From the IMG/VR virus record IMGVR_UViG_2684622670_000020: a stretch of 7,698 bases of DNA; one strand, 5' to 3'. The notes under the pieces were generated by a model. That model saw only the letters and a list, made by a program, of their open reading frames with translations. It did not search any database and was not told where the DNA came from. Position numbers and translations under genes: made by a program. Positions 18 to 6,694 of this stretch are shown here, in pieces. Origin of the DNA: a virus. Its lineage: Duplodnaviria; Heunggongvirae; Uroviricota; Caudoviricetes. Each line of letters starts with the position of its first letter. The first letter of the stretch is position 1.

Positions 18-264
18 TGAACAAAGCGCACGTTGTCTGGCCCCCTGCGGGTAAACGCGCCTGCCACAATTTTTTACCGTTGCTCATGTTGTAAGCGCGC
101 AGGTAGTTATCTGCCGTAGCGGCGATAAACAGCACATTACCCGCAGTAGAGATCGGCCCGCCCAGCATCGGCATTTCCATATTTAACGGTACCGGAACGG
201 GCATCGGGAACGACATGCTGTCCTGCGGCGTACCAATGCGTTTCTTTTCACAAATTGAACTTTA
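1..264 (-). pseudogene. gcd: truncated 3' fragment of a PQQ-dependent (quinoprotein) glucose dehydrogenase gene
   Basis: Minus-strand frame is open from the in-frame stop at 262-264 to the TGA at 1-3 (ORF track 1..216 starts at the first Met). The segment PMLGGPISTAGNVLFIAATADNYLRAYNMSNGKKLWQARLPAGGQ matches my recollection of the C-terminal propeller region of E. coli Gcd. The last 11 codons (TTCALFMPDAA) run into the REP-like sequence and do not look like Gcd. A full gene would need about 700 more codons upstream, which are absent. Confidence 0.55.
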
Positions 265-573
265 TTAACGGATTCCGCTTATGAATAGTTTTGCTGGTAT
301 ACTGCATGCCTTGCGCTTTGTTGCGGTGCCGAAACCCGCCCGTGCGAAGTGATTTGTTTTTAAATCATATGGTTAGAGATATGAAACATACTGTAGAAGC
401 AAAAATTATTTTGTATTCATGCTGTTATGTGTTTGCGTTGGGTTCTGTATTTATTTTTTATAATCAATGAGATAAATTCATTTCTTGTTCGTGTGCTTTC
501 TCCTTTTTTGGTGGTCTAGTATCGAGTGGTGTATCACTTGGTATATCACTTTTGGAGGGGCTGGGGAGGATGC

Positions 574-1800
574 GTGGCTGGCACAAACAAACTGAGTGAT
601 AAAAAATTAAGATCGCTTCTCGGCGTAAAGCGGGATTCAGTAATTACCATTGCGGATGGTGAAGGATTAAGCATCAAAGTATCCATGATGGGATGCATTA
701 GTTGGGTTTTCTCTTATCGTCTTGGTGGGCGTGGGAGCAAGTTAGAGCGCATTGTTCTTGGGCGTTACCCTGACATGTCGTTGAAAATGGCCAGGGAGAA
801 GAGGGAACTATGCCGAAAATGGTATGCGGAAGGGCTGAATCCACGACTTGAATTAGAACTTAGCGCAGAAGAAAACCTTAACCCCGTAACTGTCCATGAT
901 GCCCTTGAATATTGGCTAATTCATTACGCAAGAAAAAAACGTAGTGACGAGGAACTGGTGCGGGCGCAATTACGTAAGCATATTTATCCGCGTCTTGGCC
1001 ACTATCCGTTATCCCGGTGTGAAACGCGTCACTGGGTGGCATGTTTTGATGAAATTAACCAGTCCAGGCCAATCACTGCCGGGCGAATGTTCCAGATTTG
1101 TAAACAGGCCTTAAGATTCTGCAAGGTTCGCCGTTATGCCTCATGTGATGCCCTGGCTTTTATGACAATCCAGGATGTAGGGCAACCATCGGGGCAGCGT
1201 GATAGGGTGCTGTCAGATAGTGAGTTAGCTGATGTATGGCGGTGTACTTATAGCGATGAACAGCAACTTTATTATCTTCGTCTGCTTAAGTTGCTTGTGC
1301 TGTTTGGGGCGCGAACAATGGAAGTAAGATTATCCCGGTGGAGTGAATGGGATTTTCAGTCATGGATTTGGACGGTTCCTAAAGAACACAGCAAAACTCG
1401 TGAAAAAATAGTTCGTCCAATTCCAGAGGGCATTCGCCCATGGATTGAGGATCTAAAAAAGGAAACGGGAAAAACAGGAATTGTACTGGGTGAAGAACGT
1501 TCCCGCCAGGCTGCTTCGCTTAAAGGGCGTAGGCTATACAAAGATTTTCATCATAATGAGCCATGGACGCTTCACGATTTGCGCAGAACATTTTCTACAG
1601 GTTTAAATAATATGGGTATTGCGCCACATATTGTAGAGCTTTTACTTGGTCATGCATTGCCGGGGGTGATGGCTATTTATAACCGTAGTCTGTACTTACC
1701 TGAGAAAATGGATGCGTTGAATAAGTGGTATGGCCGATTAGAACTTCTGGCGGGTAATCATCAAAATGTGGTGCTGTTACCTGTATCGAATAGAGGTTAA
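574..1800 (+). CDS. int: P4-family tyrosine site-specific integrase
   Basis: N-terminal arm-binding-type segment (NKLSDKKLRSLL...DGEGLSIKVS...WVFSYRLGG...LGRYPDMSLKMAREKR). C-terminal catalytic signature HDLRRTFST ... LLGH ... AIYNRS (His-x-x-Arg, His, Tyr nucleophile). The ORF track opens at GTG 526; I prefer GTG 574, which is in frame and sits 4 nt after a GGAGG Shine-Dalgarno at 565-569, giving M-AGTNKLSDKK. Confidence 0.88.
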   Translation: MAGTNKLSDKKLRSLLGVKRDSVITIADGEGLSIKVSMMGCISWVFSYRLGGRGSKLERIVLGRYPDMSLKMAREKRELCRKWYAEGLNPRLELELSAEENLNPVTVHDALEYWLIHYARKKRSDEELVRAQLRKHIYPRLGHYPLSRCETRHWVACFDEINQSRPITAGRMFQICKQALRFCKVRRYASCDALAFMTIQDVGQPSGQRDRVLSDSELADVWRCTYSDEQQLYYLRLLKLLVLFGARTMEVRLSRWSEWDFQSWIWTVPKEHSKTREKIVRPIPEGIRPWIEDLKKETGKTGIVLGEERSRQAASLKGRRLYKDFHHNEPWTLHDLRRTFSTGLNNMGIAPHIVELLLGHALPGVMAIYNRSLYLPEKMDALNKWYGRLELLAGNHQNVVLLPVSNRG

Positions 1801-1891
1801 ACTGATATTACGGGCATAGGTCGGCCAACCGAAAAGCGGGAAACCCTACCCGCCTGGCTCGTAAAGTATTTAGGGCGTTGAGGGTAGCGCA

Positions 1892-2821
1892 ATGGCTAAC
1901 GACATTAAAATTCCTTTTCAGTATTGCAACATTGAACGTGCATCAAGATTGCTGGGTTGCGAGATTAGCGATCTCGTGAATTTAGGTGTTACTAAAAAAA
2001 TAGCTTTATGCCTAAATTTATTTGATGCTCGCGCTGTTTTATATATGAATACTGATAGCAAGTCTGCAACTGCTTGGTTTGATACCAGAAATGCAAAATC
2101 GACCACATCACTGATGGGGAACAATATTACTGAATACTCCAGATTTCATCTTTTCAGATACAATTATAACGAGGAGACAGATGAAACTATACACGCGCCT
2201 TTATTCGGTCAAGACTCAGAAAACGGATGCTTTAGCTCTATTGGTAGGGCTTATGGATTGTGGCGCCTTTGGAGTGGGCTGGAAGAGCTACAAAATTTTG
2301 GAGAGTATTCCCTAAGTGGTTTTGAATTAACCCCGTGTCATCCAGAAACTGATAATCCTGCCGTACAACTTTTAATGGTTGGTGAAGATAGTGATTATGA
2401 TGAAGAAGACGATCAAATATTAAAGAATAATATTTCTATAAATGACTTGTGGATTACCGCTCATGATATAAGGCGACTTCTTGACTGTGGTGGCGATTAT
2501 TTTACGCTAACAGATAATTTTGAATCTGTAGAACCTCACAAGATGAATGGCAATGAAATTGTGCACCATTCTGCTGAAAGACATGCAAGAAATCGAGAGC
2601 AAATTTTAATGGTTGCTATGCGTTTTAAAGAAGAGCAACAAAATACTTTTAATGAGACCTGCAGAAAAAACGATGGAACGATTAACTATTCTGCTTGGGC
2701 TCGTGAGTTGATCGCCAGACCTGATTGGTTCATTAATAGTGAATTGCCAATAAAAACAGAAACAAAAATAGCAGCAATTTTAAGTAATGCTCATAAGAGG
2801 CCGAGTGAAAGGTCGCAGTAA
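1892..2821 (+). CDS. hypothetical protein, 309 aa, AT-rich orphan cargo gene
   Basis: Long ORF with ATG at 1892 and GAGGG 7 nt upstream. Strongly AT-rich compared with its neighbours (hand count of 2401-2460 gives 17 of 60 G+C; 5041-5100 in rep gives 34 of 60). Contains an acidic stretch EDSDYDEEDDQ. No catalytic motif recognised. Confidence 0.7.
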   Translation: MANDIKIPFQYCNIERASRLLGCEISDLVNLGVTKKIALCLNLFDARAVLYMNTDSKSATAWFDTRNAKSTTSLMGNNITEYSRFHLFRYNYNEETDETIHAPLFGQDSENGCFSSIGRAYGLWRLWSGLEELQNFGEYSLSGFELTPCHPETDNPAVQLLMVGEDSDYDEEDDQILKNNISINDLWITAHDIRRLLDCGGDYFTLTDNFESVEPHKMNGNEIVHHSAERHARNREQILMVAMRFKEEQQNTFNETCRKNDGTINYSAWARELIARPDWFINSELPIKTETKIAAILSNAHKRPSERSQ

Positions 2822-2840
2822 GCCTTACTCATATACTCCT

Positions 2841-2885
2841 AAGCATACTGATATATTTATAAGCATTATCAGTATGTTTCTATGA
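2841..2885 (+). terminator. possible intrinsic terminator or regulatory hairpin downstream of the 309-aa gene
   Basis: Inverted repeat CATACTGATA (2844-2853) and TATCAGTATG (2867-2876), extendable to about 13 bp with one G-T, around a 13-nt loop, followed by GTTTCTATG. The stem is AT-rich, so it is weak as a terminator. Confidence 0.3.
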
Positions 2886-2958
2886 TTACTACTGTATTTT
2901 AATCCAGTATTAAAGATTGCAAAATAGCCTCCGCAAGCATAGATACAGTGGAGGCAAT

Positions 2959-3243
2959 ATGACAAAAACTACATTCATTCCCCCAACTCCAGAACAACGC
3001 CGGGCGCTTCTTGAAGAATACGGTTTTGAATTTGATCGCCGTATCCGTGAAAAGGAATGCCAGGAAATCACCAGTCTGTCGCGCTCAACTCGCTTCAAAA
3101 TGGAAAATGAAGGGCGTTTCCCGCTTCGTTGTCATTTCGGGCGCAATAGCTGTGCGTGGCTTCTCTCTGATGTGCTTTGGTGGGTTCGTAACCCACCTGC
3201 TGTAGATAAAGTCAATAATCCGTACGGTAAGAAAGCTGCATAA
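2959..3243 (+). CDS. alpA: AlpA-family (phage/prophage) transcriptional regulator or excision activator, HTH
   Basis: The segment ITSLSRSTRFKMENEGRFPLRCHFGRNSCAWLLSDVLWWV fits the AlpA pattern (TGLSRSTIYRL..G.FP.P.K.G.R.V.W..SEV..WI). ATG at 2959 is preceded by GGAGG at 2950-2954. The ORF track opens at TTG 2917, which I consider less likely. The protein has an N-terminal extension relative to 70-aa AlpA. Confidence 0.7.
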   Translation: MTKTTFIPPTPEQRRALLEEYGFEFDRRIREKECQEITSLSRSTRFKMENEGRFPLRCHFGRNSCAWLLSDVLWWVRNPPAVDKVNNPYGKKAA

Positions 3244-3262
3244 GGGGGGAGTATATGACACA

Positions 3263-3292
3263 TAAAACAAAGGCGACCGGGGGCGGTCGCCA
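3263..3292 (-). terminator. rho-independent terminator for leftward transcription
   Basis: Perfect 8-bp GC-rich stem GGCGACCG (3272-3279) and CGGTCGCC (3284-3291) with loop GGGG. On the minus strand it is followed by the U-tract UUUGUUUUAU (complement of 3262-3271). On the plus strand no U-tract follows. Confidence 0.45.
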
Positions 3293-3553
3293 ATGAAAAC
3301 ACTAAACATAAGCCCGAACATCATAGCGATTTGCTGGCTGGTGGGCAATGTGATCAGTGTGCTGGCTTGCTGGTGGATTATCAGCCTTTTGGCTCGATAC
3401 CGCGCTGTTGTAATTCTTTGCGGATTATTCGCTTTATCCAGGCAGCAAGAGAATCATCGCCGTCCTGTTGTTGTGCTTTTTCCATCTTTTCCCGTAAGTC
3501 AGGATCTAAACGGAACTGGAACGGAGGATTACCACGCCTTTCGCTTTTGTGTG

Positions 3554-3581
3554 TTGACACGTTAATTACACCTCATGTAAT
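3554..3581 (+). promoter_or_regulatory. sigma70-like promoter for the rightward replication operon
   Basis: TTGACA (3554-3559), 16-bp spacer, TGTAAT (3576-3581). Predicted start near 3588-3590, about 100 nt upstream of the first operon ORF. Confidence 0.45.
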
Positions 3582-3609: not shown

Positions 3610-3693
3610 CAATCGGCGCAAAAAGCAAAGCCCCGCAAGTGTCGTTACCACTGGCAGGGCTTATAACCACAAACCGTTATGAGAGGTAGTTTT

Positions 3694-3891
3694 ATGGCTG
3701 TAAGACAGCATACCCCACGCCTAGCGCACACACAAACGGCCTTTGTGTGGCGTTTTCTAGCACTGAGTGCCGGAGAATCTCAAATCATCCACGTCACCGC
3801 ATGGACAGAACGCGAAGCGCGTAACCGTTGCCCGTCCGGTTGTGTCGCTGTATTCGCCGCCCGTATTCGTCAGGGGGTGAGTCATGCATAA
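3694..3891 (+). CDS. small hypothetical protein, 65 aa (possibly Icd-like, unverified)
   Basis: ATG at 3694 lies 7 nt after GAGAGG; the ORF track's earlier ATG at 3679 has no Shine-Dalgarno. First gene after the promoter. FVWRFLALSA...TEREAR...VFAARI loosely resembles small prophage proteins annotated as Icd-like, from memory only. Confidence 0.5.
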   Translation: MAVRQHTPRLAHTQTAFVWRFLALSAGESQIIHVTAWTEREARNRCPSGCVAVFAARIRQGVSHA

Positions 3892-4111
3892 AATACCCTT
3901 TGATGTTCTTGTTCATTCTGAAAACGCATTAATCCGCGCAAAGGAAATGGACGCATTACTACTTAAGTTAATTGATGTGCCGGAAAGTGGCGATGAATCT
4001 GATTCAATGATGTTTTCTGCCGTGCGTACGCTATTAACGCCTGTTATTAATGAATTAAATACGGTGATGGCAATTCACGAGAATAATAAAACGCATCACA
4101 CCGGAGAATAA
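3884..4111 (+). CDS. small hypothetical protein, 75 aa
   Basis: ATG 3884 overlaps the end of the previous ORF (ATGCATAA), suggesting translational coupling. Acidic, predicted helical; no family recognised. Confidence 0.5.
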   Translation: MHKIPFDVLVHSENALIRAKEMDALLLKLIDVPESGDESDSMMFSAVRTLLTPVINELNTVMAIHENNKTHHTGE

Positions 4112-4116
4112 AAACC

Positions 4117-4416
4117 ATGAAACAGAAAAATTCTGGCTTTACTGCCAGCGGCCTCCCTCGGCCTGAAATCTGCCCCGGCGATATTTACCGGGATAAATAC
4201 GGCAGCACGGTAATGATTAAAGGTGTTGCCGGACGGTGCGTTACTTACCGCCGTGAAGGTTATGAATATGACTGCGTGATGTCTGTTTATCAGTTCCGGC
4301 GTGATTTTTCTCTGGTACAGAACGCAACACGCGGTAAGCCCACCAGCAGGGAAAAAGCACGGGAAAATATTAAGAAAATAAAAAGCATGCTCAGCGCATC
4401 CAGAGGTAAAAAATGA
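4117..4416 (+). CDS. small hypothetical protein, 99 aa, basic C-terminus
   Basis: ATG 4117 with GGAGA upstream; its stop overlaps the rep start (ATGA at 4413-4416). No family recognised. Confidence 0.55.
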   Translation: MKQKNSGFTASGLPRPEICPGDIYRDKYGSTVMIKGVAGRCVTYRREGYEYDCVMSVYQFRRDFSLVQNATRGKPTSREKARENIKKIKSMLSASRGKK

Positions 4417-5819
4417 AACTGGCACCAAACGTAAAACTGTTACCGAAAGATAAACACACTGAGGCGGTTATTTTTGCGGGTGATAATGCTCACTCCTTTG
4501 CAGAACATTACATGATTGCACAGGCCAAAAAAGCAGGCGATCCCATCCCTCCGGTTTACCTGGGCCGTTATCAGTTAAGCGAACTGGACAATTTACAGAT
4601 TGTTGATGAAGGACGATACAGAGCAAAGGTCATACGCGCCGGAAACCTGGACGATATGCAGATGCTGACCATTGCCACAAAACTGGCGATCGCAGGTGTC
4701 CGGGAAGCGCGGTTACTTTCAGAGAATTTCGAACTACTGGAGGACTGGAGCGAGCAACTACCGCGCCTTAAAGAAACCTGGGAACGTGGGGAAAGCCTGG
4801 TCATGAATGGTGGAAAGCGAAAAATCACACTTCCCATCTCATGGGGTTCTGAGGGATTCGACGCGCAGCAAAGCTACGTAATTAAGGGGCTTATTCCGGC
4901 TGAATCATTATGCAGCACCTACGGCGCGAGTGGTTCCTATAAATCGTTCCTCGCTATCTCCTGGTCGTGCCATGTTGCCACAGGTATGGCATGGGGAGGC
5001 CGCAGGGTAAGTAAGGGCGCGGTTATCTATATCGCTGGCGAAGGCAGTATGGGCGTAAAACGCCGCGTTAAGGCGTGGGAGATAACCCACGACAAGGTGG
5101 TTACAGATTTGTGCATCATTAACGCGCCTGTTTTCCCCGCATCGCCTGACTATGTGGAGCAGGTTATCAGGACTGCCGGACTTGTTAAGAGCAGAACGGG
5201 CGAAAATGTGCGGCTGATTGTGATCGACACACTGGCCCGTTGCTTTGGTGGGAATGATGAAAATGATTCCCGCGATATGGGCGCATTTATCCAGGGGTGT
5301 GACGCGATAAAGCAGGCCACAGGGGCCACGGTGCTGGTGGTTCACCATTCCGGCAAGGATGAAACAAAGGGGGCGCGTGGTTCCAGCGCATTCCGTGCCG
5401 CGCTTGATGCAGAGTACCGAATCAGCCGGGAAAATTCAGACGTTACAGCACTGGTGGCGGCGTGTACGAAGATGAAGGACGCAGAGGAGCCAAAAGAAAG
5501 CGCATACGACCTTAAAAGCGTGGAGGTGTTTACCGATACAGATGGCGAAGAGATTGTGTCTATGGTGGTGATTGACGTTCCCCGCGCCCCTGCTGAACTG
5601 GAGCGCATAGAGGAGGCCGGGAACAAGACGGAAAATCACGCCGCATTATGGCAGTGCATCAGAACACGGGCAGCACACAAAGAGCCATGCACTATCGCCC
5701 TGCTACGCGACGATATGAAAAAGCTGGGGTATGAGATGAAGCACTTCCGGCGCTGGCTGTACAAGCTGGAAAATGATGGCGTAATCGTTATTGACGGTGA
5801 TGACGTGCGCCCACTGTAA
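4413..5819 (+). CDS. RepA-like (AAA_25 / DnaB-like RecA-fold) replication ATPase-helicase of the island
   Basis: P-loop-like GASGSYKS, Walker-B-like LIVIDTLARCFGGNDENDS and VLVVHHSGKD, which is the motif order of RepA/AAA_25 replicative ATPases. About 90 C-terminal residues look like a separate possible DNA-binding domain. An iteron array lies immediately downstream. Confidence 0.75.
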   Translation: MKLAPNVKLLPKDKHTEAVIFAGDNAHSFAEHYMIAQAKKAGDPIPPVYLGRYQLSELDNLQIVDEGRYRAKVIRAGNLDDMQMLTIATKLAIAGVREARLLSENFELLEDWSEQLPRLKETWERGESLVMNGGKRKITLPISWGSEGFDAQQSYVIKGLIPAESLCSTYGASGSYKSFLAISWSCHVATGMAWGGRRVSKGAVIYIAGEGSMGVKRRVKAWEITHDKVVTDLCIINAPVFPASPDYVEQVIRTAGLVKSRTGENVRLIVIDTLARCFGGNDENDSRDMGAFIQGCDAIKQATGATVLVVHHSGKDETKGARGSSAFRAALDAEYRISRENSDVTALVAACTKMKDAEEPKESAYDLKSVEVFTDTDGEEIVSMVVIDVPRAPAELERIEEAGNKTENHAALWQCIRTRAAHKEPCTIALLRDDMKKLGYEMKHFRRWLYKLENDGVIVIDGDDVRPL

Positions 5820-5820
5820 A

Positions 5821-6022
5821 AAGTGGGGAGTAAAAGTGGGGAGTATGGGGAATTTAACAAAATTGAAACACTATTCCCCACTTTTCGACCTGTATACATC
5901 CAAAAAAGTGGGGAGTAAAAAACACAATGAAAAACAAAGCATTAGATTCACCCAAAAAACGAGATGGGGAGCAAGTGGGGAATTTAAAAAGTGGGGAGCA
6001 AAAGTGGGGAGTGGTGGGGAAT
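5821..6022. repeat. iteron array, putative origin of replication of the island
   Basis: Ten copies of the core (G/A)TGGGGA: direct at 5823, 5836, 5845, 5908, 5964, 5975, 5991, 6004 and 6014, and inverted at 5875-5881. They form two clusters (5823-5851 and 5964-6020) flanking an AT-rich stretch, immediately 3' of rep. Confidence 0.6.
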
Positions 6023-6272
6023 GACCAGAAAAACCAGAGATAAGACAGCGCCAAAATATAAAGCATTAGACATGACAGAGCACGCCTTAAAGGTGGCAAT
6101 CAGAACGATAGACCGCCATGCCGGGGAAGGATACGCGAAAGCACATCCCGAACTGATAAGCGCATTCATGACCACGGCGGCGGCAAACTTTGCCACGCTG
6201 ACTGAGCGGGAAATTGCGGAAGCGGAACAGGTGACAACCATCAACGTTAAAACCGGAGAGGTGACAGCATGA
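6021..6272 (+). CDS. small hypothetical protein, about 83 aa
   Basis: ATG 6021 lies 9 nt after GGGAG inside the last iteron; the ORF track opens at GTG 5991, within the repeats. Its stop overlaps the ssb start (ATGA at 6269-6272). No family recognised. Confidence 0.5.
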   Translation: MTRKTRDKTAPKYKALDMTEHALKVAIRTIDRHAGEGYAKAHPELISAFMTTAAANFATLTEREIAEAEQVTTINVKTGEVTA

Positions 6273-6694
6273 CAGCACAGATAGCGGCTTACGGGCGGCT
6301 GGTGGCTGACCCGCAGTTAAAAACCACCAGCAAGGGAACACAAATGGCGATGGCGAGTATGGCGGTTTCCCTGCCGTGCAGCCAGGCCGATGACGGAACG
6401 GCGACGATGTGGTTATCCGTTCTGGCGTTTGGCAGACAGGCCGATGCACTGGCCAGGCACCACAAAGGCGAACTGGTGAGCGTGGCGGGTAACATGCAGG
6501 TAAGCCAGTGGACAGGCCAGAACGGCGAAACGCGGCAGGGCTGGCAGGTCATCGCAGACAGTGTAATCAGTGCGCGAACGGCGCGACCGGGCGGCAAAAA
6601 AGGTCAACAGGGCCAGGCCACTGACGCACTGAACAGGGCAAAACAACAGACAGGCCAGCACGATGACCCGTACGGGGACGGGATACCGTTTTAA
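6269..6694 (+). CDS. ssb: single-stranded DNA-binding protein (SSB)
   Basis: OB-fold pattern aligns by eye to E. coli SSB (MWLSVLAFGRQAD vs EWHRVVLFGKLAE; KGELVSVAGNMQVSQWTGQNGETRQGW vs [27 protein letters not shown]). Gly/Gln-rich linker, and acidic C-terminal tail DDPYGDGIPF ending in the SSB hallmark IPF. Confidence 0.85.
   Translation: MTAQIAAYGRLVADPQLKTTSKGTQMAMASMAVSLPCSQADDGTATMWLSVLAFGRQADALARHHKGELVSVAGNMQVSQWTGQNGETRQGWQVIADSVISARTARPGGKKGQQGQATDALNRAKQQTGQHDDPYGDGIPF

Follow-up and report, generated by a model that had tools for sequence, protein, structure and literature searches.

A hypervariable one-gene slot between int and alpA in enterobacterial satellites, and a tentative role for the 309-residue protein that fills it in one island

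What does the single gene lying between the integrase gene int and the regulator gene alpA contribute to the island that is carried by the virus record IMGVR_UViG_2684622670_000020 (Caudoviricetes)? The whole stretch of DNA analysed here, called the window, has 7,698 nucleotides, and the gene in question, called ORF309 for its open reading frame (ORF) of 309 amino acids, occupies positions 1892–2821 on the plus strand, on which all other features also lie unless the minus strand is named. An earlier reading, made from the letters only and called here the sequence-only reading, took the gene for an AT-rich orphan in the cargo position of a P4-like satellite, perhaps a single-gene defence or abortive-infection determinant, or else a regulator. 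Our tentative answer, to which we give a probability of roughly 0.45, is that ORF309 is a nucleic-acid-binding accessory factor of the satellite life cycle, co-expressed with the integrase and acting together with Int and AlpA, and we propose that it does not work as an anti-phage effector on its own. What is new here is an always-occupied, hypervariable one-gene slot between int and alpA of enterobacterial satellites, seen in 68 related loci, together with a large protein superfamily that has no name and is linked to this slot; an observation made before on satellites of Vibrio is thereby extended.

ORF309 starts with ATG, encodes a protein of 35.5 kDa (pI 5.0) without membrane segment, and is preceded by the Shine-Dalgarno (SD) sequence GAGGG (1880–1884), as read from the sequence, 7 nt upstream of the start codon, so the gene that had been proposed at this place stands exactly as proposed. 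Between ORF309 and an 89%-identical allele, the ratio of nonsynonymous to synonymous substitution rates (dN/dS) is 0.07 at a dS of 0.55, and calculated for each domain it lies between 0.03 and 0.14 in all of them; therefore, ORF309 is a genuine gene under purifying selection. That it might be a spurious or non-functional reading frame within AT-rich spacer DNA could be suspected from the lack of any match in Pfam, NCBIfam or the PDB and from the label 'hypothetical protein' on every database copy of the protein and its relatives. Besides the selection, this suspicion is contradicted by full-length homologues in several genera with identities as low as 27%, by a confident AlphaFold2 (AF2) model, with a mean predicted local distance difference test score (pLDDT) of 81.5, and by the good SD sequence; the selection and conservation data refute it and leave it a practically negligible probability. 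In composition, the gene is also as distinct as had been noticed, having the lowest GC content among the window genes (37.6%, and 30.3% at third codon positions), compared with 45.6% for int, 47.4% for alpA, 52.5% for repA and 60.3% for ssb. Two sampled figures of the sequence-only reading need correction: about 28% GC is true of local 60-nt stretches only, which range from 21.7% up to 53.3% within ORF309, and the rep gene has 52.5% overall rather than about 57%.

The description as an orphan does not hold, because ORF309 belongs to a large superfamily, which has no name and which we call SF-A. A protein identical to that of ORF309 is present on at least 258 Escherichia contigs, its 90% cluster covers E. 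coli, Enterobacter, Salmonella and Citrobacter, and a relative in Klebsiella is present on at least 1000 contigs. By a word-indexed search, 21 clusters in Enterobacterales match ORF309, while the sensitive profile search that the sequence-only reading had recommended, run in a space of 1.84 billion representatives, gave 334 clusters at E ≤ 1e-3, of which 101 reach E ≤ 1e-10; with few exceptions they have 265–350 residues and match over their full length. Among the names listed by the profile search, no taxa of the family lie outside Enterobacterales. ORF309 is also matched by PHROG 7144 (E = 4.4e-36, residues 3–301 of 309 against profile positions 4–311 of 313), which is annotated 'unknown function'. 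No Pfam match was obtained for ORF309 at E ≤ 0.1 and none in NCBIfam, no meaningful Pfam domain was found with 136 aligned members of SF-A, and no PDB entry was matched significantly by sequence either with ORF309 alone or with the profile of the 136 members. PADLOC-DB 2.0, in a library dating from 2023, gave no match to ORF309 at E ≤ 1, and no publication came up in a literature search for PHROG 7144 or for the accessions of proteins of the family.

Based on the AF2 model and the alignments, the protein can be divided into five parts. The N-terminal part (residues 6–52, positions 1907–2047) is predicted to form a winged helix-turn-helix (HTH) with a fold like that of MerR, Xis and AlpA, composed of a strand, two helices and a hairpin; it is the most widely conserved part of SF-A, with A17, L21 and D27 present in at least 90% of the 136 members. 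It is followed by a beta-rich central domain (residues 53–163, positions 2048–2380), which is the most variable part of the protein and contains the motif GRAYGLWRL, in which GLW is near-invariant and G122 and W124 are present in at least 90% of SF-A. After an acidic and disordered linker (residues 164–176, positions 2381–2419), with 8 aspartates or glutamates in 13 residues and a pLDDT below 50, a conserved strand-helix with the motif DLWITAxDIRRLLD (residues 177–205, positions 2420–2506) is seen in both the alignments and the model. The basic C-terminal helical domain (residues 225–309, pI 9.4, positions 2564–2818) resembles a winged-helix fold weakly, and it carries 18 of the 26 residues that are invariant in the close family, H225, R230, H231, N234, R235 and E236 among them. 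Because of the winged helix of MerR/Xis type at the N-terminus, the variable beta-rich middle, the acidic linker and the basic C-terminus, ORF309 is most likely a nucleic-acid-binding protein, as far as the predicted model can tell.

It is noted that the predicted structure contains no nuclease, NTPase, TIR, SIR2, HEPN, toxin, pore or membrane domain, and this, together with the searched libraries, bears out the earlier impression that there is no catalytic motif. The structure prediction that had been suggested thus gives winged-helix-like modules and no enzyme domain, with which the alternative of a regulator is consistent. The HTH-like character suspected for the N-terminal 40 or so residues appears to be supported at the level of the predicted fold; concerning the second segment suspected to be HTH-like, the WITAHD segment is indeed conserved and is no more than a candidate for an independent HTH. 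The resemblance to known winged helices would be limited to fold, with no significant sequence-profile match from ORF309 to those of MerR and the excisionases (Xis, AlpA, TorI and BldC), and the Pfam family HTH_17 matches a single one of the 136 members of SF-A (E = 0.005). Moreover, ORF309 has 4–5 times the size of an excisionase and is without the dimerisation helix and effector domain of MerR. Homology of its N-terminus to AlpA was considered and is not supported, the hhalign comparison with the AlpA alignment giving a probability of only 2%.

We now turn to the position of the gene. Its left conserved flank is the gene of a tyrosine integrase (574–1800, with Pfam domains Arm-DNA-bind_3 and Phage_integrase), where the start at 574 is taken from the RefSeq annotation of a near-identical island and the longest reading frame begins at 526; its right conserved flank is alpA (2959–3243, 94 residues, Phage_AlpA), with 73–100% identity among islands that have unrelated slot proteins. 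Among 80 sampled IMG/VR loci that encode an AlpA 73–100% identical to that of the window, 68 contain both int and alpA, and in all of the 68 the gap between them, with a length of 822–2493 nt (median 1068), is occupied by one gene, with two further small reading frames present in the single locus that has a gap of 2.5 kb. The slot genes encode 216–359 residues, have a GC content of 0.32–0.40 in every case and fall into five families: SF-A (25 loci), DUF6387 (PF19924; 22 loci), a family of 216 residues that corresponds to phrog_30524 (family C; 15 loci), family D (4 loci) and family E (2 loci). The families are mutually unrelated, with hhalign probabilities of at most about 2% (0.9% between SF-A and DUF6387), and although DUF6387 and phrog_30524 share with ORF309 the slot and the AT-richness, they share no detectable sequence relation with it. 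DUF6387 also adjoins AlpA in the island ICEKp258.2 (PMC10763509). An HTH-like C-terminal domain common to the families, which had been an impression by eye, was rejected, hhalign giving less than 3% and the isolated C-termini giving only sub-threshold Pfam hints of HTH. With ten representatives of the four other families, PADLOC gave no match.

The variable int-proximal slot that the sequence-only reading had supposed is therefore confirmed by 68 of 68 occupied loci and five unrelated families. That reading had also named conservation as a fixed core gene in all related islands as a finding that would speak against cargo, and of this one half is observed, in that the slot is always filled, and the other half is not, in that it is filled by five unrelated families. 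Each family is paired with several classes of integrase, and alleles of the ORF309 type (at least 89% identical) are found beside integrases of 100%, 83% and 58% identity, at different attachment sites. AlpA is 73–82% identical between islands whose slot proteins share 0–40%. For SF-A itself, the order int, SF-A gene, alpA was found in all contexts examined, including those of members at E values of 1e-8 to 1e-25, and these contexts comprise cf-PICIs (phage-inducible chromosomal islands that form capsids), one PICI whose primase is of D5 type, and P4-like islands, the last of which carry also the immunity RNAs C4 and isrK. A scan of genome contigs with the integrase gave two loci only, both from Erwinia. 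The slot gene is not universal among satellites, because a more distant island (L101, 4619–4992, at the roxA/phoQ site of E. coli 06-3462), with an AlpA of 62 residues, has an empty gap of 374 nt between int and alpA, where the RNA described next is also absent. EcCIMP1_002, which occupies this place in a different PICI of E. coli, encodes a short, unrelated protein.

The borders of the slot are marked by RNA elements. The left one is the int-alpA RNA (Rfam RF02996; 1809–1875), which lies within the 91-nt spacer between int and ORF309 and is matched over its full length with 55.2 bits, compared with a gathering score of 35.8. The same RNA sits upstream of different slot families, both SF-A and DUF6387 (L003, L008, L015, L065 and L083), and islands whose slot gene overlaps int lack it, such an overlap, of 4 nt in the form ATGA, being seen in several (L004, L022, L024 and L027); this RNA could be a small RNA or the leader of the slot gene. 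Directly downstream of the ORF309 stop codon, an AT-rich hairpin of 13 bp is followed by a U-rich tract (2841–2879). It is kept in the 89% allele, travels with the ORF309 cassette and is probably the terminator of the cassette, insulating alpA; because most other cassettes likewise close with their own hairpin, in many cases followed by a run of T, the 13-nt inverted repeat is better read as a terminator. The conserved right flank of the slot consists of about 40 nt of the alpA leader, and the DNA from the ORF309 stop codon up to there is specific to the cassette. In this leader, GCCUCCGC can pair with GUGGAGGC (2927–2955) to form a hairpin that would sequester the SD sequence of alpA. Over 20 distinct leaders, 78% of the cells are paired, compared with 43–52% with a slid partner, some changes are compensatory, and the covariation score is 0.29, compared with 0.23 in shuffles (7/500). 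The helix was specified and counted by hand, since the alignment of RNAalifold was out of register and predicted no structure; Rfam has no match for the hairpin. It could block the translation of AlpA from transcripts reading through from int and the slot gene.

In other alleles, the DNA between the slot gene and alpA also contains repeats. Cassettes of the 216-residue family have perfect 10-bp tandem arrays there, CATTCAACAG in 6.8 copies in L032 (3166–3233 and 3337–3396) and GCAAGCTACA in 11 copies in L071 (2063–2172 and 2191–2249), and between these two loci the repeat sequences differ and the slot proteins are 37% identical, as if the protein and the DNA sites co-evolve. A Klebsiella cassette of SF-A has five copies of TTAGAA/TTCTAA, a number that none of 1000 shuffles reaches. 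Judged by sequence, these cassette-linked repeats suggest putative cognate binding sites beside alpA.

The closest precedent for a gene at this position, and the only experimental one, appears to be that of the PICMIs (phage-inducible chromosomal minimalist islands) of Vibrionaceae, where a gene of unknown function directly follows int in 25 of 35 subfamilies, with 13 unrelated families, named iolg if the two reading frames overlap by ATGA and icg if the gene adjoins int (PMC10803314). Deletion of iolg in PICMI115 abolishes the helper-induced excision, the packaging and the transfer by transduction, and it was proposed that the expression of int and iolg is constitutive, that alpA is induced by the phage, and that the three proteins form an excision complex (PMC10803314). 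ORF309 is likewise a single gene on the same strand after int (ending at 1800) and before alpA (beginning at 2959), and both positions are highly diverse, with 13 unrelated families there and at least five here. While several slot genes overlap int just as iolg does, ORF309 itself, standing 91 nt from int with the int-alpA RNA in the spacer, is like icg and not like iolg. The hosts are also different, 6-kb PICMIs of Vibrio on the one hand and a cf-PICI of about 15 kb from enterobacteria on the other. The likeness would thus be one of position and syntax, not of sequence comparison, and the requirement for excision is known from PICMI115 alone, with co-complementation of int and iolg. Read in this way, the precedent points to a role in excision.

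Based on these data, we infer that ORF309 binds DNA, is co-expressed with int and has a role in excision or induction. In the favoured reading, ORF309 would probably be expressed together with the integrase while the island is integrated, and the terminator-like hairpin and the SD-sequestering alpA leader would insulate it from the alpA operon that the helper induces. It would then act on the DNA of the island alongside Int and AlpA, where its likeliest role would be that of a cofactor or a licensing factor in excision and integration, as for iolg of PICMI; alternatively, still within the same reading, it may control the expression of alpA. The support for this reading comes from the fixed position between int and alpA, the full occupancy of the slot, the precedent of iolg, the lack of a defence match, the selection on the gene and the repeats in the sister cassettes.

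Several observations weigh against it. Five slot families without detectable similarity would be unusual if one recombination machinery must be fitted, and three genes among the 68 in the slot carry a frameshift or a truncation. It is unlikely that ORF309 is a recombination directionality factor specific to one partner, because the alleles are paired with such different integrases and attachment sites as given above. Some satellites have no gene between int and alpA, as in L101 and in 3 PICMI subfamilies (PMC10803314), and the deletion of iolg was complemented only by int and iolg jointly, which makes a polar effect on int possible (PMC10803314). In the cassette of the window, a search for operators gave the 13-nt inverted repeat and the hexamers ATACTG/CAGTAT, which are not above shuffles (108/1000). 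Finally, the low GC content, the moron-like layout and the shuffling of cassettes are equally typical of defence cargo.

By contrast, the slot gene may be cargo, that is, a single-gene determinant of anti-phage defence, abortive infection or exclusion between elements, which would be expressed in the integrated state and act against phages other than the helper or against competing satellites, perhaps by binding to their DNA or to a protein of a phage. Such a function would fit with a true diversity hotspot in which at least five unrelated AT-rich families swap between conserved flanks and integrase classes, most cassettes having a terminator-like hairpin of their own in the style of morons, and the limit on genome size set by the cf-PICI capsid could account for single small genes; the empty gaps and the three disrupted genes are also as expected for dispensable cargo. 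Like the slot, the known defence hotspots of satellites (that of P4 between psu and int, and the 5' and 3' immune regions of PICIs) are small, variable and AT-rich, lie between conserved genes, have a high turnover of cassettes and are expressed in the integrated state, as the slot gene probably is. However, none of the 68 slots contains a known defence gene, no slot family has a PADLOC match, and the predicted structure of ORF309 shows winged-helix-like modules only and no effector domain, so for the single-gene defence or abortive-infection role that the sequence-only reading had put forward there is no positive evidence. In this lineage the slot has always one gene and is never empty, whereas published hotspots mix known with unknown systems and vary in size (PMC9122126). 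The P4 hotspot, moreover, is located next to cos, with psu and int as its borders (PMC9122126), that is, on the other side of int, and it holds known defence systems of 1–5 kb, unlike a slot with one gene of 216–359 residues; the supposed P4-style cargo position is thus not the one that ORF309 occupies. In cf-PICIs, the published immune regions lie on either side of the packaging operon (bioRxiv 10.1101/2025.02.11.637232), the known defence systems of PICMIs lie elsewhere in the element, between prim and fis (PMC10803314), and SF-A was seen at the int-alpA junction only, among all contexts examined. We consider a defence function less likely than the life-cycle role, and the foremost of the alternatives to it.

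Less probable again is that ORF309 is a functional counterpart of Stl, the master repressor of the Staphylococcus aureus pathogenicity islands (SaPIs). As a repressor or sensor of the island, it would then bind in front of alpA with its winged helices, and the recognition of a helper protein by its variable middle would release or activate it, with the alleles setting the specificity for helper or immunity. The predicted winged-helix domains on both sides of a hypervariable middle, the location directly upstream of the master regulator gene alpA, the extension of cassette DNA to about 40 nt before alpA, the significant repeat arrays in some alleles and the constant occupancy in this AlpA lineage would agree with this, and the contrast between AlpA (73–82%) and the slot proteins (0–40%) resembles the divergence of Stl. 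Indeed, both Stl and ORF309 are adjacent to int, diverge strongly among similar islands and would bind DNA with the N-terminus, behind which a variable region lies. Yet Stl has an HTH of cI type and is encoded divergently from the operon that it represses (stl/str), whereas ORF309 is co-directional with alpA, with the terminator-like hairpin between them, and would have a winged helix of MerR/Xis type. The P4-like islands that bear SF-A have C4 and isrK and so do not need a protein repressor, satellites with an empty slot exist, no significant operator-like repeat is present in the cassette of the window, and the published induction of Gram-negative PICIs is an activation of alpA driven by the helper, with no island repressor identified. 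Equally speculative is a wider idea, in which the int-alpA slot of Gram-negative satellites would contain interchangeable, hypervariable DNA-binding licensing proteins that set the timing of excision and of alpA and the choice of helper. SF-A would be their largest class, they would be the missing Gram-negative counterpart of Stl, iolg would be explained by them, and because a cassette would bring its own DNA sites along with the protein, a swap of the cassette would re-programme the specificity for helper or immunity.

The distinction among the life-cycle role and these alternatives matters for satellites at large. How the helper switches on alpA, and which proteins join Int and AlpA to excise the island, are questions posed by the authors of the PICMI study, and SF-A, a structurally unassigned superfamily, is bound to the junction of int and alpA in three or more kinds of satellites. 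If the slot proteins are factors of excision or induction, they would be a missing core component of satellites and a handle on the helper specificity; if they are defence genes, the slot would offer, in little space, a so far unexplored source of five or more new single-gene systems. The slot is easily tested, as its cassettes have about 1 kb and alleles are available in sequenced E. coli and Klebsiella strains.

As to the element in which ORF309 resides, the genes of the window by Pfam are those of the tyrosine integrase, AlpA, DUF4222, a helicase of RepA type (AAA_25), SSB, ProQ/FinO and PerC. An island of E. coli Br_190_kylling is identical to the window by 99.1% over 248–3405, 96.6% over 3850–6023 and 94% over 6246–7240. 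This near-identical island (L001) runs on into the genes of the major capsid protein, prohead protease, portal, head-tail connector, HNH endonuclease, TerS and TerL, without tail genes, an architecture known from cf-PICIs (bioRxiv 10.1101/2022.09.08.507074). Because the near-identical relative has the packaging module, which falls past the end of the window, we infer that the island of the window is an enterobacterial cf-PICI. Islands of this class have int and alpA at the left, a replication module, packaging genes of their own, no tail or lysis genes and a length of about 15 kb, and of these parts int, alpA, repA, ssb and perC lie within the window. The layout of L001 is shared by L002, which sits at yhdJ in E. 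coli FDAARGOS_1283 and carries the 89% allele, and by L008 and L009, described next. The sequence-only reading had spoken of a P4-like satellite, which we reject: neither the window nor L001 contains psu, delta or sid, the replication genes are those of a RepA-type AAA_25 helicase with DUF4222, and the relatives carry capsid, portal and terminase genes.

A 29% homologue of ORF309 is found in a circular K. pneumoniae 'plasmid' of 15,995 bp (L008, NZ_CP069874.1), which runs from int to TerL and appears to be an excised cf-PICI, and a 38% homologue is found in a cf-PICI of Morganella (L009, NZ_CP070523.1). The latter record, a 'plasmid' of 24.7 kb, contains chromosomal DNA (accBC and fis) besides the cf-PICI, whose ends are duplicated, as would be expected if the record was mis-assembled or had captured a product of excision. 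The same pair of int and a homologue of ORF309 is also present in the 106-kb record of 'Klebsiella phage P12620-1' (L007, PQ569648.1, 88509–101435).

At the window's left end, positions 1–216 on the minus strand are the 3' end of gcd, for a quinoprotein glucose dehydrogenase, about 89–91% identical to E. coli gcd, followed by the border region of the island (217–573); the corresponding island of E. coli has gcd and hpt as its neighbours, and no tRNA gene is involved. Since the identity to the E. coli copies is 89–91% for gcd and 94–99% for the island, an Escherichia other than E. coli, or a close relative, is the probable host, and a horizontal transfer of the island is probable as well. Downstream of alpA, an antirepressor gene (AntA/AntB, KilAC or ORF6N) is present in most relatives, is missing in the window and is left as a pseudogene remnant in L001. 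A minus-strand reading frame of 59 residues (3381–3560) is the counterpart of a small gene, YlcI/YnfO or HicB-like, in related islands, and it is followed by a frame similar to the cell-division inhibitor Icd (3679–3891). Just 3' of the helicase gene, the perfect 13-bp tandem repeat pairs AAAAGTGGGGAGT (5819–5845) and AAAAGTGGGGAGC (5987–6011) are iteron-like and probably mark the replication origin of the island. Finally, at 6731–7545 the gene of an RNA chaperone of the ProQ/FinO family (178 residues) is followed by the overlapping gene of a PerC-family regulator (93 residues); a PerC homologue of another E. coli PICI was reported to repress the LEE (locus of enterocyte effacement) pathogenicity island (PMC11773190).

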